IMG/VR virus record: IMGVR_UViG_2690316066_000016 | Span: 1-13,194 of that record | From: a virus | Taxonomy: Duplodnaviria; Heunggongvirae; Uroviricota; Caudoviricetes | Length of the DNA stretch: 13,194 nt | Strand: one strand, 5' to 3' | Shown: piece after piece, positions 1-13,194 of the stretch | Layout: each line of letters opens with the position of its first letter | How positions within the stretch are numbered: the stretch's first letter is position 1 | Program-made: the position numbers and the translations under genes | Notes under the pieces: generated by a model | Databases searched by the model: none | Seen by the model: only the letters and a program-made list of their open reading frames with translations | Told to the model about the DNA's origin: nothing

Positions 1-1
1 C

Positions 2-691
2 GCTGAGCTTACCGCTGAGCTTAACATGCGTAAAAAACAATACAACTACTATCGCGACCAGTTATTTAGTTTTGGTGCCCACGATGTTAAACGTCTGAAA
101 TTAGGAGAGCTATGTGTAATTGGAGACGGTTTGCATGGTACTCCAGAATATGACGCCAACGGTGATTATTTCTTTATCAATGGAAACAATTTAGGCTATC
201 AAAAAATATCATTTAACGATAACACAAAAAAGGTTAATGATTCTATGTTTAAAAAACACGGAATTCATTTTGACCCAATAAATACTGTTTTCCTGTCAAT
301 TAATGGCACAATTGGAAATGTTTCCTTTTACAATAATGAGAAGATCGTACTCGGTAAGTCTGTGGCCTATTTTAAAATTAAATCACCTGAACTCCACACT
401 AGATATCTTTTCTATTTCCTGCAGACCAATTACGCAAAACAGTATTTTGAAAATCAAAAAACAGGTTCAACTATTAAAAACTTAGGTTTAAAATCGTTGA
501 GAGCATTTGAAATACCTATCCCATCATACGATGAACAACTTTATATCGTCGCCACGATGGATAAATTTTACAACCTGACAAACTCCATCACCGAAGGTCT
601 CCCGCGTGAAATCGAGTTGCGCCAGAAACAATACGAATACTACCGTGATTTACTGTTCAGTTTCCCGAAACCTGAAACTGTCAGTAATTAA
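2..691 (+). CDS. hsdS: Type I restriction-modification specificity subunit HsdS, 5'-truncated by the window edge (C-terminal target-recognition domain plus conserved tail)
   Basis: Frame opens at the window edge with [22 protein letters not shown] (central conserved region) and ends ...[20 protein letters not shown], the duplicated conserved motif typical of HsdS. The ATG at 26 is internal, not the true start. hsdR follows on the same strand. Confidence 0.8.
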
Positions 692-813
692 TTGACCATT
701 GCTACCGATCGGGCCACCTTAACACCCGGTCAGTATATAGACTATTTTTTTACGCGCCGGAAGTCACTCTTAACGCCCTTCCGGCTCTTGCCAGGCGGCA
801 CAAAGGATGCGCT

Positions 814-3800
814 ATGACTCATCAAACACACACCATTGCTGAATCCAATAACTTTATCGTCCTTGATAAGTACATCAAAGCTGAGCAAACAAGCGACAGC
901 TACCAGAGCGAATCGGACCTGGAACGTGAACTGATTCAGGACCTGCGGAATCAGGGTTATGAATTTATTTCGGTAAAATCACAGTCAGCGATGCAGGCCA
1001 ACGTTCGGGAACAGCTTCAGAGCCTCAATGGTGTGGTGTTTAATGACAGCGAGTGGCGGCGTTTCACGGAGCAGTATCTGGATAACCCGAGCGATGGCAT
1101 TCTGGATAAGACCCGTAAAATCCATATCGACTATATTTGCGACTTTATTTTTGATGACGAGCGTCTTGAGAACATCTATTTGATAGATAAAAAGAATCTC
1201 ATGCGCAATAAGGTGCAGATTATCCAGCAGTTTGAGCAGGCGGGTTCTCATGCTAACCGTTATGACGTCACGATCCTGGTTAATGGCTTACCACTGGTAC
1301 AAATCGAACTGAAAAAGCGCGGCGTGGCGATTCGTGAGGCTTTCAACCAGATACATCGTTACAGTAAAGAGAGTTTTAACAGCGAAAATTCCCTGTTTAA
1401 GTATCTGCAACTGTTTGTCATTTCTAACGGCACCGATACCCGTTACTTTGCCAACACCACAAAGCGCGATAAAAACAGTTTTGACTTCACCATGAACTGG
1501 GCGAAATCAGACAACACGCTGATTAAAGACCTCAAAGATTTTACCGCTACCTTTTTCCAGAAACATACTCTGCTTAATGTTCTGGTGAACTACAGCGTGT
1601 TCGATATTAGCCAGACGCTACTGGTGATGCGACCGTACCAGATTGCCGCTACCGAACGGATCTTATGGAAAATCAACAGTTCCTATAAAGCGAAAAACTG
1701 GTCTAACCCCGAAAGCGGTGGCTTTATCTGGCACACTACCGGTTCCGGTAAAACACTGACCAGCTTTAAAGCCGCGCGCCTGGCAACAGAACTGGACTTT
1801 ATTGATAAAGTCTTCTTTGTGGTCGACAGGAAAGACCTCGATTACCAGACGATGAAGGAATATCAGCGTTTTTCCCCAGACAGCGTCAACGGCTCGGAAA
1901 ATACCGCAGGCCTTAAACGAAATCTGGATAAGGACGATAACAAAATTATCGTCACCACTATTCAGAAACTTAATAACCTGATGAAAGCAGAAAGCGACCT
2001 GCCTGTATACAATCAGCAAGTGGTGTTTATATTTGATGAATGTCACCGCAGCCAGTTTGGAGAAGCGCAGAAAAATCTGAAGAAGAAATTCAAACGCTAT
2101 TATCAGTTTGGTTTTACCGGCACACCTATTTTCCCGGAAAACGCTTTAGGCTCAGAAACGACCGCCAGCGTATTTGGTCGTGAATTGCATTCATATGTGA
2201 TTACCGATGCGATTCGTGATGAAAAAGTGCTCAAATTCAAGGTGGACTATAACGATGTGCGGCCCCAGTTTAAATCTTTAGAGACAGAAACCGACGAGAA
2301 AAAACTGAGTGCGGCTGAAAATCAGCAGGCGTTTCTTCATCCCATGCGTATACAGGAAATTACGCAATATATTCTGAATAACTTCCGCCAGAAGACCCAC
2401 CGTACTTTCCCAGGTTCCAAAGGCTTTAATGCCATGCTGGCAGTGAGTAGCGTGGATGCCGCGAAAGCCTATTACGCGACGTTTAAACGGTTACAAGAGG
2501 AAGCAGCTAATAAATCGGCTACCTATAAACCGCTGCGTGTTGCGACAATCTTCTCCTTTGCCGCCAATGAAGAACAAAATGCCATTGGTGAAATTTCCGA
2601 TGAAACTTTTGATACCAGCGCAATGGACAGCAGTGCTAAAGAGTTTCTTGACGCTGCAATTCGTGAGTATAACAGCTATTTTAAAACTAACTTCAGCACC
2701 GACAGTAACGGTTTTCAGAACTACTATCGTGATTTAGCCCAACGGGTTAAAAATCAGGATATCGATCTGTTAATTGTCGTTGGGATGTTTTTAACCGGCT
2801 TCGACGCTCCAACATTGAACACGCTATTCGTCGATAAAAACTTGCGTTTTCACGGCCTGATGCAGGCATTCTCCCGCACCAACCGCATTTATAACGCCAC
2901 TAAAACCTTCGGTAACATCGTCACTTTCCGGGATCTGGAACGCTCAACCATTGATGCCATAACGCTGTTTGGTGATAAAAATACCAAAAATGTAGTGTTA
3001 GAAAAGAGTTATGCAGAGTATATGGAAGGCTTTACTGATGCTGCCACTGGTGAAGCTAAACGCGGCTTTATGGCAGTAGTTTCAGAACTGGAACAACGGT
3101 TCCCTGACCCTGCCAGTATTGAAAGTGAAAAAGAGAAGAAAGACTTCGTTAAACTGTTTGGTGAATACCTGCGTGCCGAGAACATCCTGCAAAACTATGA
3201 TGAATTTGCCACGCTGAAAGCCCTGCAACAAATCGATCTTAGCGATCCTGTTGCGGTAGAAAAATTCAAAGAAGAACATTATGTGGATGATGAAAAGTTC
3301 GCTGAATTACAAACGATTCGTCTCCCTGCTGAACGCAAGATTCAGGATTATCGTTCTGCCTATAACGATATTCGTGACTGGCAGCGCCGCGAGAAAGAGG
3401 CTGGCAAAAAAGAAAAGTTAACTACTGACTGGGATGACGTGGTTTTTGAAATCGATTTGCTGAAGTCTCAGGAAATAAACCTGGATTATATCCTTGGACT
3501 GATTTTCGAACACAACAGACAAAACAAAGGTAAGGGCGAAATGACCGAAGAGGTCAAGCGCTTAATTCGTTCGAGCCTTGGGAACCGTGCCAAAGAAGGT
3601 CTGGTGGTCGATTTTATTCAACAAACAAACCTGGATGATTTGCCGGATAAAGCCAGCATCATTGACGCGTTTTTTACCTTTGCTCAACGCGAACAGCAAC
3701 GTGAAGCAGAAGCATTGATCAAAGAAGAAAATCTCAATGAAGAGGCGGCGAAACGCTATATTCGCACGTCTTTAAAACGCGAATACGCCACCGAAAATGG

Positions 3801-3930
3801 CACGGAATTAAACGAGACATTGCCAAAACTCAGTCCGTTAAATCCGCAATATAAGACGAAAAAACAGACGGTTTTCCAGAAGATCGTCGCGTTTATTGAG
3901 AAGTTTAAAGGTGTAGGCGGGCAGATATAA
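814..3930 (+). CDS. hsdR: Type I restriction enzyme R subunit HsdR (1038 aa), EcoR124I-like (type IC) by length and context
   Basis: N-terminal PD-(D/E)xK-like nuclease region ([19 protein letters not shown]), helicase motif I HTTGSGKT, motif [12 protein letters not shown] (DExH). AAGGA sits 6 nt upstream of the ATG. The 1038-aa length matches my memory of EcoR124I HsdR (not verified here). Confidence 0.9.
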
Positions 3931-3944
3931 TGTATTAATCCGAA

Positions 3945-3974
3945 CCTGATCTGGCAGATAGCTGTCAGATCAGG
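3945..3974. repeat. Imperfect 13-bp-stem inverted repeat immediately downstream of hsdR (CCTGATCTGGCAG-ATAG-CTGTCAGATCAGG)
   Basis: Read directly from the sequence; one mismatch in the stem and no T-tract after it, so it is not a canonical intrinsic terminator. Possibly an mRNA 3' stabiliser or protein-binding site. Confidence 0.4.
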
Positions 3975-4114
3975 ACTGAGCTAATACAAATTAATATCGA
4001 ACCGAAAATACCAACGCCTGTACCAACATTTTTCGTTTGCGATGGGTTGGAATTGGTTAGCCCTGAGAGAGTTAAAATAGCGAGAAAGATAGGTAACTAA
4101 CGGATTTCAGACAC

Positions 4115-4137
4115 AAAAAAAGCCGCTCTTGAGCGGC
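4115..4137 (-). terminator. Rho-independent terminator on the minus strand, downstream of the tRNA-Leu 3' fragment
   Basis: Plus strand AAAAAAA-GCCGCTC-TT-GAGCGGC; on the minus strand this is a GC hairpin followed by a T7 run, 17 nt after the tRNA-like CCA end. Confidence 0.6.
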
Positions 4138-4154
4138 TCGATTTGCATACGATG

Positions 4155-4185
4155 TGGTGCCGAAGGCCGGACTCGAACCGGCACG
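4155..4185 (-). other. 31-nt 3'-terminal fragment of a tRNA-Leu gene (T-arm, acceptor 3' strand, CCA); putative att core of an integrated element
   Basis: Minus strand reads CGTGCCGGTTCGAGTCCGGCCTTCGGCACCA, matching from memory the 3' end of E. coli tRNA-Leu (leuX-type). Upstream sequence has no matching 5' acceptor strand (no GCCGAAG...), so this is not an intact tRNA. An integrase gene starts 134 nt away. Confidence 0.6.
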
Positions 4186-4318
4186 GGTTATAGCGACTTA
4201 GCTTGCTTCAACAATCATCGTTAACTTGTTGAACTAGTTAGACTAAAGCTCATGACCCCGGCACATTTCACAGACTGTTTAGCCATGAAAAAGCCCCGAC
4301 AACATAACCGGGGTTTGT

Positions 4319-5527
4319 ATGAGTTTCAAGAGAGATCGTTATCTAGTTTTAGATCCCTGCGGGAATTACCTCGTGCGGATAGCTATCCCCAACTACATGC
4401 GCCACCTGTTCCAAGGGAAGCGCTACTTTATGAAAAGCACAGGGACACGCGATGTACGCCAAGCGCGATTGTTTCGGGATGCTATTGCTCTGGAATGGAC
4501 TCGCTTACGGAATCTGCTAAAGCCGCAAGGCGGCTCGTCTGTAGATCAAATCATTGATGAGCTACGCCGTGTCAGTGTGTACGCCAAGGAAGCCCCCACA
4601 TCATTTGGTGCATCAGTTCAGTCTTGCCCTTCCCTACTTAAAATGCGCGATCTGTATCTTCTCCAATACAGCGAGAAGAGAAAGCTAACGACGCTATCCA
4701 AGACCAACAAAGCCGTAGAGATGCTGTTAACCCACCTGAAAAAGAAAGATGTTCAGTTGCGGGATATAAACCGAACCATAGTTACAGGCTGGTTAGATAA
4801 GCTCAAAACTGAGCGAGCGCCCCAAACTATCCAAAACTATATAAGCGCACTGGCACAGATATGGGACCTGGCACGCAATCGCTATCACGATGCGCCACAA
4901 GACAATCCTTGGCGCGGTCATGCGCTCGAAGCAAAAAGCAGCAAGGTCAGCTATGAAGTCTTCGCACCGGGTGAGCTGGCAAAGGTCTATGCTTTGCTTG
5001 ATGACGAGATGAAAGCGGTAACGGCTATTGGTGCATACAGCGGTATGCGGATCAATGAAATATGTACCCTACGTGAAAGCAGTATTAAAACTATCGAGGG
5101 AGTTTTGTGCTTTGAGATCACCGAGGGGAAGACCAAGAGCGCGGCGCGAATCGTCCCAGTACACAGCAAGCTAATCCCCCTCGTGAAATCATTGCTCAAA
5201 ACCACACATAGCGGTTTTCTGTTCTATCACGCATCAATTACAGACCGGGCCGATGGGAAGCGCTCAACGTGGCATACGCAGCAATTCACGCGAGCAAAGC
5301 GTAAAGCTCTTGGCGAGCTTGCCGCAGAGAGAAAAGTGTTTCACTCACTCCGCCATGCTTTTGTGCAACAGCTCGACCGCGCTCAAGTGCAAGAGGATAG
5401 AATCGCGCTACTGGTAGGCCATGAGCGTGGAAGTACAGAAAGTTTCAAAACCTATTCACGAAATAGCGCCTCAACGATTGAACTTAAAAAATACGTCGAA
5501 TTGTTGTCATATAAAGACATCAGGTAG
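4319..5527 (+). CDS. Tyrosine-type site-specific integrase (phage/island integrase)
   Basis: C-terminal catalytic signature: Arg in GMRINEICTLR, HxxR box HSLRHAF, LVGHE, and a Tyr in KTYSRNS about 35 aa after HxxR. Lies next to the tRNA-Leu att-like fragment. The start is uncertain; downstream Met codons are possible. Confidence 0.85.
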   Translation: MSFKRDRYLVLDPCGNYLVRIAIPNYMRHLFQGKRYFMKSTGTRDVRQARLFRDAIALEWTRLRNLLKPQGGSSVDQIIDELRRVSVYAKEAPTSFGASVQSCPSLLKMRDLYLLQYSEKRKLTTLSKTNKAVEMLLTHLKKKDVQLRDINRTIVTGWLDKLKTERAPQTIQNYISALAQIWDLARNRYHDAPQDNPWRGHALEAKSSKVSYEVFAPGELAKVYALLDDEMKAVTAIGAYSGMRINEICTLRESSIKTIEGVLCFEITEGKTKSAARIVPVHSKLIPLVKSLLKTTHSGFLFYHASITDRADGKRSTWHTQQFTRAKRKALGELAAERKVFHSLRHAFVQQLDRAQVQEDRIALLVGHERGSTESFKTYSRNSASTIELKKYVELLSYKDIR

Positions 5528-5578
5528 ATAAAAAACACTTGCGAAATGGATTAATTTTTCACTTAAATTATTTGAGCA

Positions 5579-5605
5579 GGCTGCGCTATTAATTCAAGCG
5601 CAGCC
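5579..5605. terminator. Perfect 9-bp-stem hairpin (GGCTGCGCT-N9-AGCGCAGCC) between the convergent integrase and TIR genes; candidate bidirectional terminator
   Basis: Inverted repeat read from the sequence, located in the 83-bp gap between two convergent stop codons (5527 and 5611). Flanks are not strongly T-rich, so terminator function is inferred from position only. Confidence 0.35.
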
Positions 5606-5610
5606 AATCG

Positions 5611-6225
5611 TTACCATAGTCTAGGTTTAGCTCGGATAGCAGGAACTGTATCTGCATTTCTTTTAACAGCAGGATTCATAATTGCTCGCTTATTAAATGC
5701 TTCATCAATATATGTTTCGCAATCAGCAATAAAATCGGAATACCTTACCACTGCACAATACACTTCCTCATCGGTGTAATGCGGAACTGTTTTTTGAAGA
5801 CGATGATTACCTTGTACCAGATAAGGAAGATATAGTGTATAACCAGTAGAAATCTGCCTTAAACTCACTCCGCAGTTACATCGAAAGTCAGAACATACAG
5901 CATCGGTAAAAACTTCATTCCAGATTTCATCTCTGACGACACCTATCAATCCCGCTGGATTTTCACCCCATAGAGATGCTTGAATTTCTGAGTTCACAAA
6001 TGGACGTTGGGCGGTCTCTCTCCCGATAAGCACAACAGTAACTGTAGTATCAGCGAGATATTCCTCGCGTATCTTACGCATGATGTATTCTTCACTTACA
6101 TCAGTACTAATGTCACCGTCGCTTACGGATTTATCGATAAAAGATTCCCCACCATACGTCTCTATTATACTATCTTTTAAATCCTGTTCATTAGCATGAT
6201 GATAACTTAGAAATGTTTTATGCAT
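5611..6225 (-). CDS. TIR-like domain protein, ThsB-like (DUF1863-type); likely start at the Met codon 6225-6223, with an alternative in-frame ATG at 6237
   Basis: N-terminus KTFLSYHHANEQDL and core TVTVVLIGRETAQRPFVNSEIQASLWGENPAGLIGVV follow the ThsB/TIR-like pattern as I remember it (F-[ILF]-S-[YF]-H...D, then VLIG..T..R.[WF]V..EI with the conserved Glu). GGAG sits 6 nt upstream of the 6225 ATG. Its start overlaps the upstream gene's stop as TAATG. Confidence 0.7.
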   Translation of the reverse strand: MHKTFLSYHHANEQDLKDSIIETYGGESFIDKSVSDGDISTDVSEEYIMRKIREEYLADTTVTVVLIGRETAQRPFVNSEIQASLWGENPAGLIGVVRDEIWNEVFTDAVCSDFRCNCGVSLRQISTGYTLYLPYLVQGNHRLQKTVPHYTDEEVYCAVVRYSDFIADCETYIDEAFNKRAIMNPAVKRNADTVPAIRAKPRLW

Positions 6226-6962
6226 TAGTTGCTCCATTTATCCATGTCAATACTAAACTGGCTGGCAACACTATCTTGAAAGAATTTATTCAGCTCAGTG
6301 AAATCATTAACAAGTTTATTAAAATGATAATAGTAAGTCTGAATTTTACCGATTGGTGTCAGATGATACCTAAGAACAATTGCTTCACCATCAGGTTTCT
6401 CGTCAATTTTAACTTCATCTTTATCTGAGACGTATTTATGCCAGCGCCTATAATTATTTTGGTGCTCAGTCAGAAATGCATTTAGTTTTTTGAGCATAGT
6501 ATTCGCCAACATATATAACTCAAGATCTTTTTTCCTTTTAATATTCAGAACTCGCATCTCAACACGAATAAACTGATAGACCTCGTAGTAAGAATTAAAT
6601 ACCTCATCAAAAGCATCCTGCTGAACGTTTATTTTAAAAAGCGTCCTTTTCGTGTCGAGAAAATTCTGTATAGACTTTATGAAAAGGGCATCAGAGTTAT
6701 CAAAAAGAATATTTAAACCGCCAAAATTAAGCCGTTCAACTTTAAACGAATATTTTCTATTCATCATGCCATCTAATAGAAAGATAGCCACAATGATTAA
6801 TACAACTACAGAAAGTAGAGAACTAAGTACCCCAATATTTTGAAGTAAACGCTTACCGAAGGTTATATCTTCCGACGTTGGTAACTGAACAGTTCCCAAG
6901 AGCGCAATAACAACTATGCAAACAGACCCCCACACAACCCATCTCTTGTACATAAGCATCAT
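6225..6962 (-). CDS. Membrane protein with two N-terminal TM helices and a roughly 180-aa cytoplasmic domain of unknown family; candidate effector/partner of the TIR protein
   Basis: Hydrophobic stretches WVVWGSVCIVVIALLGTV and NIGVLSSLLSVVVLIIVAIFLL, with positive residues before TM1 and after TM2 (N-in/C-in). No family motif recognised in the C-terminal domain. Start ambiguous among three ATGs (6962, 6959, 6953); AGGA is best spaced for the 6953 ATG. Very AT-rich. Confidence 0.6.
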   Translation of the reverse strand: MMLMYKRWVVWGSVCIVVIALLGTVQLPTSEDITFGKRLLQNIGVLSSLLSVVVLIIVAIFLLDGMMNRKYSFKVERLNFGGLNILFDNSDALFIKSIQNFLDTKRTLFKINVQQDAFDEVFNSYYEVYQFIRVEMRVLNIKRKKDLELYMLANTMLKKLNAFLTEHQNNYRRWHKYVSDKDEVKIDEKPDGEAIVLRYHLTPIGKIQTYYYHFNKLVNDFTELNKFFQDSVASQFSIDMDKWSN

Positions 6963-6981
6963 CCTAAAACGCAGTTTAAAA

Positions 6982-7010
6982 ACTATACAACGATGTTTTT
7001 AAGAGTGGAA
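6982..7010 (-). promoter_or_regulatory. Candidate sigma70 promoter for the 2-TM/TIR operon (-35 TTCCAC, 17-nt spacer, -10 TATAGT on the minus strand)
   Basis: Hexamers read by eye on the minus strand upstream of the operon start; the -35 is weak (3 of 6 matches). Not experimentally supported. Confidence 0.3.
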
Positions 7011-7035
7011 GTCCTAGTTATCAGACACATTCTGC

Positions 7036-7066
7036 TTAGCCTACGCATCTCTATTGTGTAGGCTAA
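7036..7066. repeat. Perfect 9-bp inverted repeat (TTAGCCTAC-N13-GTAGGCTAA) between the phage genes and the TIR/TM operon
   Basis: Read from the sequence. Lies 20 nt downstream of the endonuclease VII-like gene stop and just upstream of the candidate promoter: either a terminator hairpin for the phage gene or an operator. Confidence 0.4.
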
Positions 7067-7086
7067 TGCAATGAACTTAAGCCCAG

Positions 7087-7533
7087 CTAAGTAAGTTGCT
7101 CAGTTTTATGGGGATAGATAACTCCTATCCCCTTGTACTGGCGTCGGTAACTTACCAACATTACGCTCATACTGTCGTGGGCCAGTCCACATAAACTTCC
7201 TGCATAATAGCCTCCCTCGGCAGCGTTAGCAGATCGATGCACCACAGCACGCACGCGCCCGGTTCGGTGGCAGTGATCCAGCACGGCAGACCCAAGGCGC
7301 AGCGGCTTACCTGTCACTGCACAGCGTCGGTATTGATAATTCCACAAGAAGACACGGACAGTAGCCACATCAGCGCGACGCAGCTCCAGCCGTCCTGAAC
7401 CATTCAACAGGAAGTGATACACATCATCGAACGCAGCAGAATTTTTAATGCGTTCAGGCAACGGCGTATTGCCGAGATATTCCAGATATCCCCGCATCGC
7501 TTTTCTTAGTAGTTGGTCTGTCCGTGTAACCAT
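7087..7533 (-). CDS. Phage endonuclease VII-like (HNH-superfamily) protein, apparently degenerate in the zinc-ligand positions
   Basis: Motif CAVTGKPL...AVLDHCHRTGRVRAVVHRSANAAEG resembles the endonuclease VII signature (CxxC ... DHxHxTGxxRGxLCxxCN..G), but with CxxT and HxxA where the Cys pairs are expected. GGAG lies 10 nt upstream of the ATG. Confidence 0.5.
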   Translation of the reverse strand: MVTRTDQLLRKAMRGYLEYLGNTPLPERIKNSAAFDDVYHFLLNGSGRLELRRADVATVRVFLWNYQYRRCAVTGKPLRLGSAVLDHCHRTGRVRAVVHRSANAAEGGYYAGSLCGLAHDSMSVMLVSYRRQYKGIGVIYPHKTEQLT

Positions 7534-7805
7534 GATTCAAAGTCTCCACTGTCAGATGCAGCCCGTTTGCAGGCTTCGTATTCTTCGCGCTGGCGTTGGC
7601 ATACCAGAGCATAAAGCTCGACGGCCATCGCATTAACACGTTCGTCACTGATACCATTGCGGCGCATCAGCCCCAGCAGCTTACGAAATTTAGCTTCAAG
7701 CTCAGGCTCTCCGGTATCCATTACCCACTGTTTCAGGTCAGCGAGTGCGCCAGTCATTGGCGGCGGCTCGATGTACCGCCACCTTAATTTAATCGTGGTT
7801 ATCAT
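7506..7805 (-). CDS. Hypothetical phage protein (about 99 aa from the RBS-supported start; the ORF extends to 7853)
   Basis: Open frame with GAGAGGA 8 nt upstream of the ATG at 7805-7803, which overlaps the 3' end of the upstream gene (stop at 7789). No recognisable family. Confidence 0.45.
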   Translation of the reverse strand: MITTIKLRWRYIEPPPMTGALADLKQWVMDTGEPELEAKFRKLLGLMRRNGISDERVNAMAVELYALVCQRQREEYEACKRAASDSGDFESWLHGQTNY

Positions 7806-8214
7806 CTTCTTTATCCTCTCTGTAAGCCGGGTGCATTGCTCGGTATTGCTCAATGGTCAAACCCTCGCTGGCCGCTGCAAACCGTTCCTTTTGCTTACCC
7901 GCCAATCGCAAGGCGCTGTCTCTCCAGCAGAGCAGAAAGAAGATGGTCAGCACCTGTTTACTCAAGCCATCCAGAAGATCGCCAAGTCCTTGCTCAAGCA
8001 GACAGGCACGCCATGCAGCGGCGTGCTCAGTCATCGCACCTACTATCGGGACAGGTGCGCCGAGCATTGTCGCAAGCTGACTCATAACACTATTAGCATC
8101 GCCCGGATGCAGCCGGGGAATAGTCATGCGGCCAGCCTGCGCCAACAGCTCGTCGTACCGCTGGCGGCGTGGGTCATCACCTGCCAGCGACCTAATCGGC
8201 TTTTCATCAGCCAT
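7789..8214 (-). CDS. Hypothetical phage protein (141 aa)
   Basis: Open frame with a strong RBS (GGAGG 8 nt upstream of the ATG at 8214); co-directional and tightly packed with neighbouring phage genes; no family recognised. Confidence 0.5.
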   Translation of the reverse strand: MADEKPIRSLAGDDPRRQRYDELLAQAGRMTIPRLHPGDANSVMSQLATMLGAPVPIVGAMTEHAAAWRACLLEQGLGDLLDGLSKQVLTIFFLLCWRDSALRLAGKQKERFAAASEGLTIEQYRAMHPAYREDKEDDNHD

Positions 8215-8232
8215 TAATGGAACCTCCGAGGA

Positions 8233-8742
8233 TTAGGCAGCCTGCAATAAATCGGCTGGCGTTGAGGGATGGTATCTGGCTTTAGCTTTCAGGTACGCAA
8301 CACGCGCCGCAGCTTCGGTAGTGAATAAGCCAAGGTGATGACGTACACCATCAACACGAATATAAGCCTCCCATTTACTACTACCCTTATTCCAGCTATA
8401 CCCTCTTGCCCTGCGTCGATTCTGGTCGTTTTCCCGCTGCGTAACCAATCGCAGATTGCATAAGCGGTTGTCGTCACGGATACCGTTGATGTGATCGATC
8501 TGCATACCGTGGGGAATAGCACCATGCGCAAGAATCCACGCCACGCGATGGGCTTTTAGCTGGTACTGCTTGCCATCAAGTCGCAGGGCAACTTGACGAT
8601 AGCCATCAGCTCGACGGGTGGAGTCGGCATAGGTGCCAACCTTAACCCGGCGTCGGTTAGCTTTATGTTGCAGGCGGCCTGTCACCGGGTCATATAGGAA
8701 AAGGGAGAGCAGTAGCTCAGGGGCGTAAGCATCATTAACCAT
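8233..8742 (-). CDS. HNH homing endonuclease with a C-terminal AP2-like DNA-binding domain (phage-type)
   Basis: HRVAWILAHGAIPHGMQIDHINGIRDDNRLCNLRLVTQRENDQN is a classic phage HNH (HNH_3-type) motif; C-terminal SKWEAYIRVDGVRHHLGLFTTEAAARVAYLKA resembles an AP2 domain. Confidence 0.8.
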   Translation of the reverse strand: MVNDAYAPELLLSLFLYDPVTGRLQHKANRRRVKVGTYADSTRRADGYRQVALRLDGKQYQLKAHRVAWILAHGAIPHGMQIDHINGIRDDNRLCNLRLVTQRENDQNRRRARGYSWNKGSSKWEAYIRVDGVRHHLGLFTTEAAARVAYLKAKARYHPSTPADLLQAA

Positions 8743-8758
8743 GACTCAGCCCCTCCAG

Positions 8759-9754
8759 TTACACAGCTTGTCGGAAATTGATAACGCAGTCAGGACGACG
8801 CAGCCCAACGTTGAACAGGCGATATGAGTCCATCACCATTGTCATTTCGCGCTCATCATCCCACTGGCGATTAATGACGCTCTGCGCTTCGACCGTCAGC
8901 AGCACAGAGGAAGGTTTAAATAGCGTCGCCCTCGTCAGCGCTTCCTCTGCGGTAACATCATAATCAGCGCCCAGTTCATGCCCGGTGATGGCTTCCTGCG
9001 GGTAACTGTTGAGTTCAATGACTCGCACCCCAGCGACATAGCCAACGCGACGCCATGCGTAATCGTTGCCACTATCCCGGCTGTAACGGACGTTCATCAG
9101 CTTCTTATGCTCCATCAGGATGCTGAACCAAGCCGGGTCGATAAGCAGTACCAGCTCCGCCACCGGAATATCTTTCTCAGTCAGGAATCGATTAACAGCA
9201 GCTTTAATAGCGTGAACCAGCTCATTTGCTGCGTCCTCTTCACTACCCGTGGTCAGGTTGAGCGGGACAACGTTATCCGTAAGCGGGTTAAACGTTGGTT
9301 GCAGTGTCGGCGGTGGTACAAAGTCAGTCGCTTTGATTAGCTGGGTGGTGTGCGCTTCGTCGTAGAATTTAGCGTGAGCAGTACCCATATTGCGGCTCAG
9401 TTCTGCGCGAAAGGTGGGCGCTGTCCAGTCGTCCTGATAGTCAATCGGGACGCGGATATAGCTCAGCGTATCCACAGAGATAACCAACTTGTCCGACTTA
9501 ACGGCGGTAGGCTCCAGCGATTGCCCTGCGGTTCTGCCCTTCACCTCAAGATCACCACCTAGGCGATCAATGCGGTATTGGTTGCTGTTTTTCAGCGGCT
9601 TGTATGTGCTTAGCCCCTCTGCGAGAAAGACGCTCTTTGCCTCAAGGCGGGTCTGAACGTCCCGATCATACGCTTCAATGTGAATGTCGTTGTCAGCATC
9701 CACACCGCCCCAGTGCGGGCGGAATTGGTCAGGGGTATAAACATTGTCAGTCAT
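8759..9754 (-). CDS. Phage major capsid protein, T7 gp10-like (HK97 fold), putative
   Basis: Blocks KSDKLVISVDTLSYIRVPIDY, IKAAVNRFLTEKDIPVAELVLLIDPAWFSILME and RVGYVAGVRVIEL align by eye with T7 gp10 regions as I remember them (KVITIDGLL..., LTKNYVPAADRVFYCDPDSYSAILAA, NVMGFEVVEVPHL). GGAG lies 8 nt upstream of the ATG. Homology is from memory, not a search. Confidence 0.5.
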   Translation of the reverse strand: MTDNVYTPDQFRPHWGGVDADNDIHIEAYDRDVQTRLEAKSVFLAEGLSTYKPLKNSNQYRIDRLGGDLEVKGRTAGQSLEPTAVKSDKLVISVDTLSYIRVPIDYQDDWTAPTFRAELSRNMGTAHAKFYDEAHTTQLIKATDFVPPPTLQPTFNPLTDNVVPLNLTTGSEEDAANELVHAIKAAVNRFLTEKDIPVAELVLLIDPAWFSILMEHKKLMNVRYSRDSGNDYAWRRVGYVAGVRVIELNSYPQEAITGHELGADYDVTAEEALTRATLFKPSSVLLTVEAQSVINRQWDDEREMTMVMDSYRLFNVGLRRPDCVINFRQAV

Positions 9755-9821
9755 AGAAATAGCTCCAGCGCCAGCAGTAGCCAGCGTGATTTATGAAAAG
9801 AGAAAGAGAGAATGGGAGGAA

Positions 9822-10169
9822 TCAGGCAGCAGCTTTTTCAGCAGCCACCTCAAGAATCAGGCCGATAAGCGCGAAAGCGGGCCATTGGGGATTAAGCTCG
9901 TGCAGGTGCGCAACGCCTCCACCAAAAGCATCGCGCATGTCAGCACCAGAGATGCCAGAGCGTTTGGCCGCCCGCCGCAGCAATCGCAGCTCAGAGCTGG
10001 GAACATACGCCGAGGGCATACGCACGCCAAAGCGTGAGGCGAGCCGCCGCCAGTGAGTTTCATCAGCAAAGTCTTGTTTAAGCTGGCTGGCGTTGGCTTT
10101 CCAGTGTTCAATCTTTGCTCTACGGGCAGCCCTAGCCGCTGCCACGTTTTCAGGTGTCAGTAAGGTCAT
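9822..10169 (-). CDS. Hypothetical phage protein (115 aa)
   Basis: Open frame co-oriented with the phage module and preceded by a 160-bp intergenic gap; weak RBS; no family recognised. Confidence 0.4.
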   Translation of the reverse strand: MTLLTPENVAAARAARRAKIEHWKANASQLKQDFADETHWRRLASRFGVRMPSAYVPSSELRLLRRAAKRSGISGADMRDAFGGGVAHLHELNPQWPAFALIGLILEVAAEKAAA

Positions 10170-10329
10170 TGTCAGATCTCAATGCAAAATGGGTTTATGT
10201 GTGGTGTTTGAGAGGTAATTTCGCGTTTTACAGGCGCAGGTATACGAATGCACATCTGGCGATGTACAACGCGATTCAGGCTCTAAAACATAAGGTTAAG
10301 ACGTGGGGAAGACAGGACAGGGCAATTGC

Positions 10330-11409
10330 TTAGCGGCCAGCGCGCTTGCCAGCGGAGCGCTGCGCAACCAGATCGCGGTATTGTTCGTCGTACTGGCGAT
10401 GACCGGGGCCATACCCCGATTGCAGCGCCCACTGCGAAAGCTGGTCATACGCTGCAATAAATTCAGCATGAGACATCCCGACAGGTTGCGCGGTAGGCTG
10501 GCCATGCTGGGCATAACCAGTTTGTGAACCGCCAGCCATACGCTCTTGCAGATACTGAACCGCCCGCTGCATCTGAGCAGGGTCGCCAGACATAACCATC
10601 CGCTCAAGGGTAGATTGCGTCCCGGCATCGAGCGTGCCAGCATATTGCAACATCGCGTCAACTGTACCCTGCCCTAACTGACTTTCTATGGACTGTTGAA
10701 ACTGCCCCATTAACCCTTGCAGCTCGGCGGTATACTCGACAGCCGTCCAGCCATCTTTCATGGTGCGGATCTCTTTTTTACCCGCGTTGACCATTGGCTC
10801 GATGGTGAACGTCATCCCAGGTTTCAGTACGACGTTGGTTTCACGGGAGTCATAGTGCAGCACCTGCGGTTCTTCATGGAAGCCGCGACCAATACCGTGT
10901 CCACAATATTCACGAACGACGGAGAAGCCTTCTGCTTCGACAAACTTCTGAATCGCCGCACCGATTTCGCGCAGGTTAATGCCTGGTTTGACCATGCGCA
11001 GCGCCAGGTACAGGCTTTCTTGCGTGATGCGGCACAGACGTTCGCCCATGATGGTCGGCTTACCGACGATAAACATTTTCGAGGTATCGCCGTGGAAACC
11101 ATCTTTGATTACGGTGACATCAATGTTAACGATATCGCCATCTTTCAGCAGCTTCGCATCGTCCGGGATACCGTGGCACACCACTTCATTAATAGAGATG
11201 CAAACGGATTTCGGATAGCCGTGATAGCCGAGGCAGGCAGAAACCGCGTGTTGTTCATTAACAATGTAATCATTACAGATGCGATCCAGCTCGCCGGTGC
11301 TGACGCCCGGTTTAACATACGGTTCGATCATCTCCAGCACTTCGGCAGCCAGTCGGCCAGCGACGCGCATTTTTTCGATATCTTCTGGGGTCTTGATTGA
11401 GATAGCCAT
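10330..11409 (-). CDS. map: Chimeric ORF: methionine aminopeptidase Map residues 1-222 fused in frame to 137 aa of unrelated (phage-like) sequence; native Map C-terminus (42 aa) missing
   Basis: Translation matches E. coli Map from MAISIKTPEDIEKMRVAG... through ...KKEIRTMKDGWT, then diverges to AVEYTAELQGLMGQFQQ... Nucleotide homology to map stops at about 10743. Position divergent from rpsB matches the known map-rpsB arrangement. Confidence 0.85.
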   Translation of the reverse strand: MAISIKTPEDIEKMRVAGRLAAEVLEMIEPYVKPGVSTGELDRICNDYIVNEQHAVSACLGYHGYPKSVCISINEVVCHGIPDDAKLLKDGDIVNIDVTVIKDGFHGDTSKMFIVGKPTIMGERLCRITQESLYLALRMVKPGINLREIGAAIQKFVEAEGFSVVREYCGHGIGRGFHEEPQVLHYDSRETNVVLKPGMTFTIEPMVNAGKKEIRTMKDGWTAVEYTAELQGLMGQFQQSIESQLGQGTVDAMLQYAGTLDAGTQSTLERMVMSGDPAQMQRAVQYLQERMAGGSQTGYAQHGQPTAQPVGMSHAEFIAAYDQLSQWALQSGYGPGHRQYDEQYRDLVAQRSAGKRAGR

Positions 11410-11554
11410 TAATTCTGTCCATCAGCGTCGGTGATACCGACAATATATATGTAAGTGCCGTCAATGGTATCACACCCGGGCAAATTGAGAATCATTCTGA
11501 ATTTCGCCAAACGTGCCACTGAACGTTTTCTATAATAGAAAATTCAACGTCTGA

Positions 11555-12502
<948 letters not shown>

Positions 12503-12676
12503 TAAGGCTTGATAACTCCCCCAAAATAGTTCGAGTTGCAGAAAGGCGGCAAGCTCGAGAATTCCCGGGAGCTTACATCAGTAAGTGACCGGGATGAGCG
12601 AGCGAAGATAACGCATCTGCGGCGCGAAATATGAAGGGGGAGAGCCCTTATAGACCAGGTAGTACACGTTTGGTTA

Positions 12677-12702
12677 GGGGGCCTGCATATGGCCCCCTTT
12701 TT
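12677..12702 (+). terminator. rpsB-tsf intergenic hairpin with T-tract (GGGGGCC-TGCATAT-GGCCCCC-TTTTT); attenuator or partial terminator
   Basis: Perfect 7-bp GC stem followed by five T residues, between rpsB and tsf as expected for the rpsB-tsf operon. Confidence 0.6.
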
Positions 12703-12759
12703 CACTTTTATATCTGTGCGGTTTAATGCCGGGCAGATCACATCTCCGAGGATTTTAGA

Positions 12760-13137
12760 ATGGCTGAAATTACCGCATCCCTGGTAAAAGAGCTGCGTGA
12801 GCGTACTGGCGCAGGCATGATGGATTGCAAAAAAGCACTGACTGAAGCTAACGGCGACATCGAGCTGGCAATCGAAAACATGCGTAAGTCCGGTGCTATT
12901 AAAGCAGCGAAAAAAGCAGGCAACGTTGCTGCTGACGGCGTGATCAAAACCAAAATCGACAGCAACTACGGCATCATTCTGGAAGTTAACTGCCAGACTG
13001 ACTTCGTTGCAAAAGACGCTGGTTTCCAGGCGTTCGCAGACAAAGTTCTGGACGCAGCTGTTGCTGGCAAAATCACTGACGTTGAAGTTCTGAAAGCACA
13101 GTTCGAAGAAGAACGTGTTGCGCTAAACACAGCCTGA
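12760..13137 (+). pseudogene. tsf: Elongation factor Ts, truncated: only the N-terminal ~122 codons are tsf-like, then three unrelated codons and a stop
   Basis: Translation [43 protein letters not shown]...[11 protein letters not shown] matches E. coli EF-Ts (283 aa), then reads NTA-stop. Nucleotide homology ends at about 13124; the remaining roughly 70 nt are of unknown origin. Confidence 0.85.
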
Positions 13138-13194
13138 ATAAACGGACTGTAGCTGTCGATATCAGCCACCATCACGATGATGTCGCGCGGAGTA

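Follow-up and report, generated by a model that had tools for sequence, protein, structure and literature searches.

The window analysed here, a stretch of 13,194 nucleotides that makes up positions 1 to 13,194 of the virus record IMGVR_UViG_2690316066_000016 (Caudoviricetes), encodes on its complementary strand a TIR-like protein. This locus raises the question of whether that protein is an enzyme that generates a signal or a degenerate scaffold, and of the system to which it belongs. A preliminary description, made by eye, had placed the glutamate of its NSEI motif at the position of the catalytic glutamate of the ThsB-type TIR NADases. We examined the reading frame, the family and the fold of this protein, the gene located directly upstream of it and the genomic context of the pair.

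Reading frame and start codon of thsB

The features of the thsB gene and of its junction with the upstream gene are as follows.

5611 to 6225, minus strand: thsB, ThsB-type TIR protein, 204 amino acids from the ATG at 6225
5986 to 5988, minus strand: GAA codon of the putative catalytic glutamate of ThsB (E80 from the ATG at 6225, E84 from the ATG at 6237)
6223 to 6227, minus strand: stop/start overlap TAATG of thsG and thsB, read from the sequence, with the same one-base overlap in RefSeq

The open reading frame noted earlier (5611 to 6237, minus strand) contains TVTVVLIGRETAQRPFVNSEIQASL and encodes 208 amino acids from an ATG at position 6237, which is 12 nt further upstream than the ATG at position 6225. 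The second ATG is most likely the start codon of thsB. It is favoured because it and the stop codon of the upstream gene overlap in the sequence TAATG, a GGAG being located 7 nt 5' of the ATG, because the RefSeq orthologues from two E. coli genomes are 204 amino acids long and show the one-base overlap with the upstream gene, and because the N-terminus MHKTF is common to all homologues in our alignment of 47 sequences. The glutamate of NSEI was thus correctly numbered as residue 84 when counted from the ATG at 6237, and is E80 when counted from the likelier start. The TAATG overlap joins thsG to thsB in an arrangement that suggests translational coupling.

Family, fold and catalytic glutamate of ThsB

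The Pfam family PF08937 (ThsB_TIR, DUF1863) matched residues 9-101 of the 208-amino-acid reading frame with a score of 54.8 bits (E=1.3e-14), the gathering cutoff of this family being 21.2 bits, and six ThsB models of PADLOC matched the TIR of the window, with a lowest E-value of 1.2e-10. A phmmer search of the PDB sequences aligned VVLIGRETAQRPFVNSEI of the window protein to VLIGSQTFNRRWVRYEI of the Bacillus cereus ThsB (BcThsB; 6lhy and 9b7d). The alignment spans residues 6-93, includes the block VLIG..T..R..V..EI and has a weak pairwise E-value (0.07). Since there are no gaps in the aligned block, the glutamate of NSEI is paired with the glutamate of YEI of BcThsB. This glutamate is residue 87 of the 6lhy chain, which we take to be E85 of BcThsB on the assumption that the chain carries two extra N-terminal residues. 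The E85Q substitution of BcThsB abolished both defence and NAD depletion (bioRxiv 10.1101/2021.01.06.425286).

The profile built from the 47 homologues gave the identical pairing of the two glutamates against BcThsB, with an E-value of about 1e-6. Against 9vyl (BdThsB1 with NAD), the same profile aligned over residues 14-183 (E=9e-12) and paired the glutamate with that of WEI. E80 is among the 13 invariant columns of the alignment of 47 sequences, in which the identity goes down to 30% and the mean column identity is 48%; other invariant residues are F5, S7, Y8, H9, H10, G68, T71 and R74. The alignment and the invariance of the glutamate are far beyond what chance would produce.

The AlphaFold2 model of ThsB (pLDDT 91.2, pTM 0.88) showed alternating strands and helices, with E80 within a predicted helix (75-85) that comes straight after a strand (62-67). 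In TIR domains, the helix that follows the third strand bears the catalytic glutamate, and the location of E80 in the model fits this arrangement. A Foldseek search of the PDB with the model returned as best matches the ThsB crystal structures 9vyl, 8wcf, 9b7d and 6lhy; TIRs from plants and animals came next.

These results bear out the placement of a glutamate at the catalytic position of ThsB, through both the phmmer and the profile alignments and through its invariance in the 47 homologues. The motif given for ThsB in the preliminary description (VLIG..T..R.WV.YEI) proved accurate on alignment to BcThsB, and the profile alignment that it had called for set the glutamate of NSEI on the glutamate of YEI in BcThsB and of WEI in 9vyl. 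The flavodoxin-like TIR fold, the part of the proposed structural check that concerned the fold, was recovered as well, with a pLDDT of 91.2 and with ThsB structures as the top Foldseek matches. The proposal that this ThsB-type TIR generates a signal, and is not a degenerate scaffold, is thus supported by the Pfam match, the fold and the invariant glutamate, and by the near-identity of the operon to that of E. coli S1 described below. From this evidence, the ThsB of the window is likely to be catalytically active through E80.

An insertion rich in cysteine and histidine in ThsB

5758 to 5928, minus strand: insertion within the TIR at residues 100-156 or thereabouts; C111, C116, C118, H149 and C157 are conserved

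This insertion of about 55 residues is present in 36 of the 47 homologues and absent from a short subfamily. Its cysteines and histidine are kept in 32 to 36 of the 36 sequences that have it. The ACN001 TIR also has an insertion, and 9vyl aligned with a similar one, CNC motif included, in the profile alignment. It is possible, from this conservation, that the insertion forms a metal site or a sensor module.

The partner gene, thsG

The features of the gene located upstream of thsB are as follows.

6225 to 6953, minus strand: thsG, effector, 242 amino acids, stop codon (6227-6225) included, directly upstream of thsB
6762 to 6941, minus strand: two predicted transmembrane (TM) helices of ThsG, residues about 5-25 and 38-64 (Kyte-Doolittle and AlphaFold2)
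6228 to 6758, minus strand: cytoplasmic helical domain of ThsG, residues about 66-242 (AlphaFold2)

The Kyte-Doolittle windows of the two TM segments exceeded 1.6, and the AlphaFold2 model has helices at residues 2-21 and 40-64. From residue 90 on, the pLDDT of this model is mostly 87-97 and the protein is almost all-helical, with long helices and a short beta-hairpin. The cytoplasmic helical domain is presumably the ligand-sensing domain. No match to the ThsG of the window was found in Pfam, PADLOC or NCBIfam, and searches of the PDB with the fold of the model returned generic four-helix-bundle matches only, with nothing specific. According to Yirmiya et al. (bioRxiv 10.64898/2025.12.03.692087), ThsG is unlike any domain whose function is known, and our unspecific fold matches agree with that description.

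The family PF20355 (DUF6650) was absent by hmmscan at E<=10 from the ThsG of the window, from 23 close homologues and also from the validated ThsG of the Bacillus metagenomic scaffold, and it was absent from 20 distant relatives of ThsG at E<=0.01 or E<=1. This family does not discriminate with hmmscan because the validated ThsG is also without a match. The DUF6650 annotation of Yirmiya et al. was probably obtained with a more sensitive method or from cluster representatives.

The HMMER profile of the family of the window ThsG found 181 representatives among 1.84 billion proteins. The validated Bacillus-scaffold ThsG, which lacks TM helices, was recovered beside the exact published TIR, and BLASTP linked it to many distant members of the family with E-values down to 1e-18. 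Comparison by hhalign of a profile led by this validated ThsG with the window family gave a probability of 98.9% and an E-value of 3.8e-17 over 146 columns, in a comparison that is partly circular, the intermediates having been fetched by the profile of the window family, while their BLASTP link to the validated ThsG is independent. The match covers residues 66-227 of the window ThsG. When the validated ThsG was used as a single sequence against the window family, the hhalign result was insignificant (E=0.1). Taken at the level of these profiles, the effector of the window is homologous to the validated ThsG. Scanning of genome contigs for a Bacillus type VI locus gave as its sole match a Vibrio oxidase, which is a false positive due to the shared word EETKNSWW, and scanning of metagenome contigs for such a locus gave nothing.

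Identity of the operon

The pair of genes is kept in the same order and with overlapping frames in distant bacteria, namely Enterobacteria, Bacillus and Streptococcus. In Bacillus mycoides, the partner gene directly precedes the TIR gene, and the partner is 41% and the TIR 62% identical to those of the window; the arrangement is the same in Streptococcus suis, where the partner is 40% identical. The conservation of the pair across such distant bacteria therefore indicates a functional two-gene module.

Type VI Thoeris consists of a ThsB TIR and a ThsG effector, the latter a DUF6650 protein with or without N-terminal TM helices (Yirmiya et al., bioRxiv 10.64898/2025.12.03.692087). The system of Escherichia coli S1 is listed in Table S2 of that paper as type VI, 'DUF6650 and TM', with defence 'Yes' in E. 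coli MG1655, where the cloned operon protected against phage (bioRxiv 10.64898/2025.12.03.692087). It has the same two genes as the window (ThsB, IMG 2719191281; ThsG, IMG 2719191282), in the same order and with the one-base overlap, and its operon occupies the same slot of an island of the same backbone, between the integrase and endonuclease VII. The ThsB proteins of the window and of E. coli S1 are identical at 198 of 204 positions (97%) and the ThsG proteins at 238 of 242 (98%); the few amino-acid substitutions between them include none at invariant columns. The nucleotide identity is 95.6% over the 1.7-kb stretch from 5400 to 7100, and this whole stretch was found in only two complete E. 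coli genomes, one of which is S1. The TIR sequence given in Table S1 under IMG 2719191281 is the protein encoded at the E. coli S1 locus, and the ThsB of the window differs from it at 3 of 181 aligned positions. The island adjoins hsdR in the window, whereas it adjoins the fim region in E. coli S1. Near-identity to the tested S1 operon therefore means that the operon of the window is an allele of a system validated by experiment. By these sequence comparisons, the operon of the window is an already known one, a near-identical allele of the type VI Thoeris described in 2025.

Three other Thoeris types were considered and rejected. For type I, no SIR2, SLOG or ThsA match was found in the neighbouring genes with Pfam, PADLOC and NCBIfam. 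For type II, no Macro or PADLOC ThsA match was found in the partner, although it does have two TM helices, and its cytoplasmic domain is predicted to be almost all-helical and not an alpha/beta macro fold. For type VII, no SLATT family was found in the partner or its 23 homologues with Pfam at E<=10.

Genomic context of the operon

The genes that surround the operon are as follows.

26 to 3930: type I restriction-modification system, hsdS and hsdR, directly left of the island
4319 to 5527, plus strand: tyrosine integrase of the island (Pfam Phage_integrase, E=2.3e-16; PHROG integrase, E=4e-34)
7087 to 9754, minus strand: rest of the phage-like island backbone, comprising the following three genes
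7087 to 7533, minus strand: endonuclease VII (PHROG, 1.9e-15)
8233 to 8742, minus strand: HNH endonuclease (PHROG, 5e-56)
8759 to 9754, minus strand: major head protein (PHROG, 1.9e-69)

The thsG-thsB pair sits between the tyrosine integrase and the block formed by endonuclease VII, the HNH endonuclease and the major head protein, and its GC content is 34-39%, compared with 49-55% in the flanks. The backbone of the island is also found in E. coli 1094, S1 and E2348/69. Judging from gene content and base composition, the island is a small, phage-like integrative element of the type of the capsid-encoding satellites, and it carries the operon as low-GC cargo. E. coli E2348/69 has the same island at the same place beside hsdR, with an AbiTii-domain gene in the slot instead of thsG-thsB; the slot is therefore an exchangeable position for defence cargo. 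A scan for promoters and terminators gave background level only, and no tRNA gene marking the ends of the island was found within the window.

Comparison with other Thoeris systems

The type VI system of the metagenomic Gammaproteobacteria scaffold (Ga0209396_1000232), in which signalling by 2'cADPR was demonstrated, has a TIR of the ThsB type that belongs to the same protein cluster (2741407742) and keeps the glutamate at the same position (WEI); its effector bears the annotation 'DUF6650 and TM'. However, this TIR is only 42% identical to the ThsB of the window over the first 101 residues, and it is without the Cys-rich insertion (residues 100-156 of the window ThsB). The ThsB of Bacillus cereus MSX-D12, from a type I system (6lhy, 9b7d), has the Pfam family, the fold and the VLIG..T..R..V..EI block in common with the ThsB of the window at about 18-19% identity; its partner is a SIR2-SLOG ThsA and its product is 3'cADPR, whereas the TIR of the window adjoins no SIR2, SLOG or Macro gene. 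BdThsB1 (9vyl, crystal with NAD, 'putative cyclic ADP-D-ribose synthase TIR1') is the closest solved structure by both the profile and Foldseek (TMq 0.63), with about 20% identity. It presumably comes from a type I system and would then pair with a different effector.

Signal, mechanism and alternative explanations

Production of 2'cADPR, and only after infection, was seen for three of five validated type VI TIRs, while the other two gave no detectable 2'cADPR, which the authors ascribed to weak production or to a different signal (bioRxiv 10.64898/2025.12.03.692087). The text of that paper names neither of the two 2'cADPR-negative TIRs and contains no catalytic-residue mutant of any type VI TIR. 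Exogenous 2'cADPR, and not 3'cADPR or cADPR, arrested the growth of cells carrying type VI, and the sponges Tad1 and MoTad2 cancelled type VI defence (bioRxiv 10.64898/2025.12.03.692087), as did XopQ, a 2'cADPR hydrolase (later preprint). The systems used in the 2'cADPR response assays were those of the Gammaproteobacteria and Bacillus scaffolds, and not S1 (bioRxiv 10.64898/2025.12.03.692087; later preprint). AlphaFold3 predicted for ThsG a tube of six protomers, with pockets of positive charge between them, and membrane damage was proposed by the authors for the ThsG proteins that bear TM helices (bioRxiv 10.64898/2025.12.03.692087).

It is highly probable, in our view, that the locus is a type VI Thoeris operon, thsG-thsB, carried as island cargo, whose TIR makes a nucleotide through Glu80 and whose ThsG acts on the membrane. 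Phage infection would trigger ThsB, the active site of which, with Glu80 as the catalytic residue, would cleave NAD+ and cyclise the ADP-ribose. The resulting nucleotide signal, most likely 2'cADPR, would bind the cytoplasmic helical domain of ThsG, and ThsG, anchored by its two TM helices, would act as an oligomer to cause membrane damage and growth arrest, such that the phage could not complete its cycle. By analogy with the characterised type VI systems, the product of the window ThsB is likely to be 2'cADPR, and the modelled TM helices suggest that its ThsG acts on the membrane.

The least probable of the readings that we weighed, and one to which we give almost no credence, makes the TIR a catalytically dead scaffold in which the glutamate is kept for structure only. 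The activity of the window ThsB is a prediction, which leaves some room for such a scaffold, but the invariance of the glutamate together with F5, S7, Y8, H9, H10, G68, T71 and R74 in homologues down to 30% identity argues against it, as does the function in defence of the near-identical S1 operon. It is also very improbable that the TIR is itself the killing effector, depleting NAD+ as the TIR effectors of CBASS, Pycsar and pAgo systems do, with the membrane protein as sensor or regulator. A catalytic glutamate is equally needed for plain NADase activity, and Yirmiya et al. concede that there could be effectors that deplete NAD+ among the predicted Thoeris TIRs (bioRxiv 10.64898/2025.12.03.692087). 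Their caveat, however, concerned unverified types; the growth arrest by exogenous 2'cADPR is confined to cells carrying type VI, defence is abolished by the sponges or by XopQ, and the characterised members of the ThsB family are signal synthases.

The nature of the signal leaves more room for doubt. The ThsB of the S1/ACN001 type, with its Cys-rich insertion, could make a signal other than 2'cADPR that is sensed by its own variant of ThsG, which we consider unlikely though worth weighing. The two of five type VI TIRs without detectable 2'cADPR speak for it, the authors having themselves raised a different signal, but S1 may be among the producers, since the non-producers are not named. Weak production below the detection limit is moreover the explanation that the authors put first, and the expression of S1 and ACN001 from their native promoters favours a low yield. 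The experiments on the response to 2'cADPR that are named in the text were all done on other type VI systems, and the S1-type TIR has the insertion of about 55 residues that the Gammaproteobacteria-scaffold TIR is without. The remoteness of the S1-type ThsG from the Bacillus-scaffold ThsG, seen in the insignificant single-sequence hhalign comparison, also favours a separate signal, whereas the homology of the effector domains in the profile comparison goes against it. A branch of the S1 type that is 2'cADPR-negative, that signals with another derivative of NAD+ and in which the insertion binds metal and senses the phage is just as unlikely.

Significance

The current RefSeq names of the two proteins are 'TIR domain-containing protein' and 'hypothetical protein', and the PADLOC models of the 2023 era recognise only the TIR. 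The reading preferred here allows the locus to be annotated as thsG-thsB, a type VI Thoeris operon that occupies the cargo position of a phage-like island. The significance of this result lies mainly in correct annotation and extends little beyond it, the system being a real but ordinary one.

Cys/His-rich insertion of ThsB

Comparison of the window ThsB with its homologues showed that it carries the following insertion:
5758-5928, minus strand: TIR insertion, ThsB residues ~100-156, with C111, C116, C118, H149 and C157.
Each of these five residues was kept in 32 to 36 of the 36 homologues that bear the insertion, and the aligned insertion of PDB 9vyl likewise contains CNC. The insertion is present in the window ThsB, whereas it is absent from the Gammaproteobacteria TIR linked to 2'cADPR and from the rest of the short subfamily. 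Its role may be to bind zinc or to sense phage.

Automatic annotation of the operon

DUF6650 (PF20355) is the Pfam family assigned to ThsG in the type VI Thoeris paper (bioRxiv 10.64898/2025.12.03.692087). hmmscan gave no hit to this family for the validated ThsG of the Bacillus scaffold (L008 3598-4110), for the window ThsG (6225-6953) or for any of 43 relatives, so type VI effectors will escape automatic annotation based on Pfam only. The window TIR (5611-6237, minus strand) had a further PADLOC match, to the candidate model PDC-M50B (E=6.3e-10); the product of its partner, thsG, hit none of the PADLOC models. A related TIR system may have been predicted computationally before under the name PDC-M50.

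Cargo slot and flanks of the island

The island has an exchangeable cargo position, bounded by the integrase and endonuclease VII genes (window 5528-7086). In the window, as in E. coli S1 and 1094, it is occupied by thsG-thsB; E. coli E2348/69 has a gene with an AbiTii domain there instead (L011 5973-7003). The GC content of the cargo is 34-39%, as against 49-55% for the island backbone. The two flanks of the island hold the following features:
26-3930, plus strand: type I restriction-modification specificity subunit and HsdR nuclease, directly left of the island integrase.
10330-11409, minus strand: fused ORF of 359 aa, in which ~222 codons of methionine aminopeptidase (map) are joined to island-derived sequence.
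Since the restriction-modification genes adjoin the integrase, the Thoeris operon lies in a defence-gene neighbourhood. On the right, the match to island sequence ends at 10755, within a hypothetical island gene, and the match to the E. coli map gene starts at 10743; 13 bp (10743-10755) are therefore common to both. Among 5426 complete E. coli genomes, not one spans this junction. Methionine aminopeptidase is essential, and hsdR and map normally lie at distant positions in E. coli. The junction looks like an assembly chimera or a rearrangement by illegitimate recombination.

TIR genes near related operons

The validated operon of the Bacillus scaffold is adjoined, on the opposite strand, by a conserved set of three genes (L008 4151-6582, minus strand), encoding a TIR_2 protein of ~263 aa and proteins of ~213 and ~410 aa. 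Priestia aryabhattai likewise carries this set (L010 4237-6585, minus strand), which may be a second TIR-based system. In Bacillus mycoides (L002 1-2799 and 6640-7407), the gene after the thsG-thsB pair encodes a multi-pass membrane protein of 255 aa that is not related to ThsG. The presence near this gene of more TIR_2/LD_cluster2 genes and of a ThsB_TIR fragment indicates a TIR-rich defence island.
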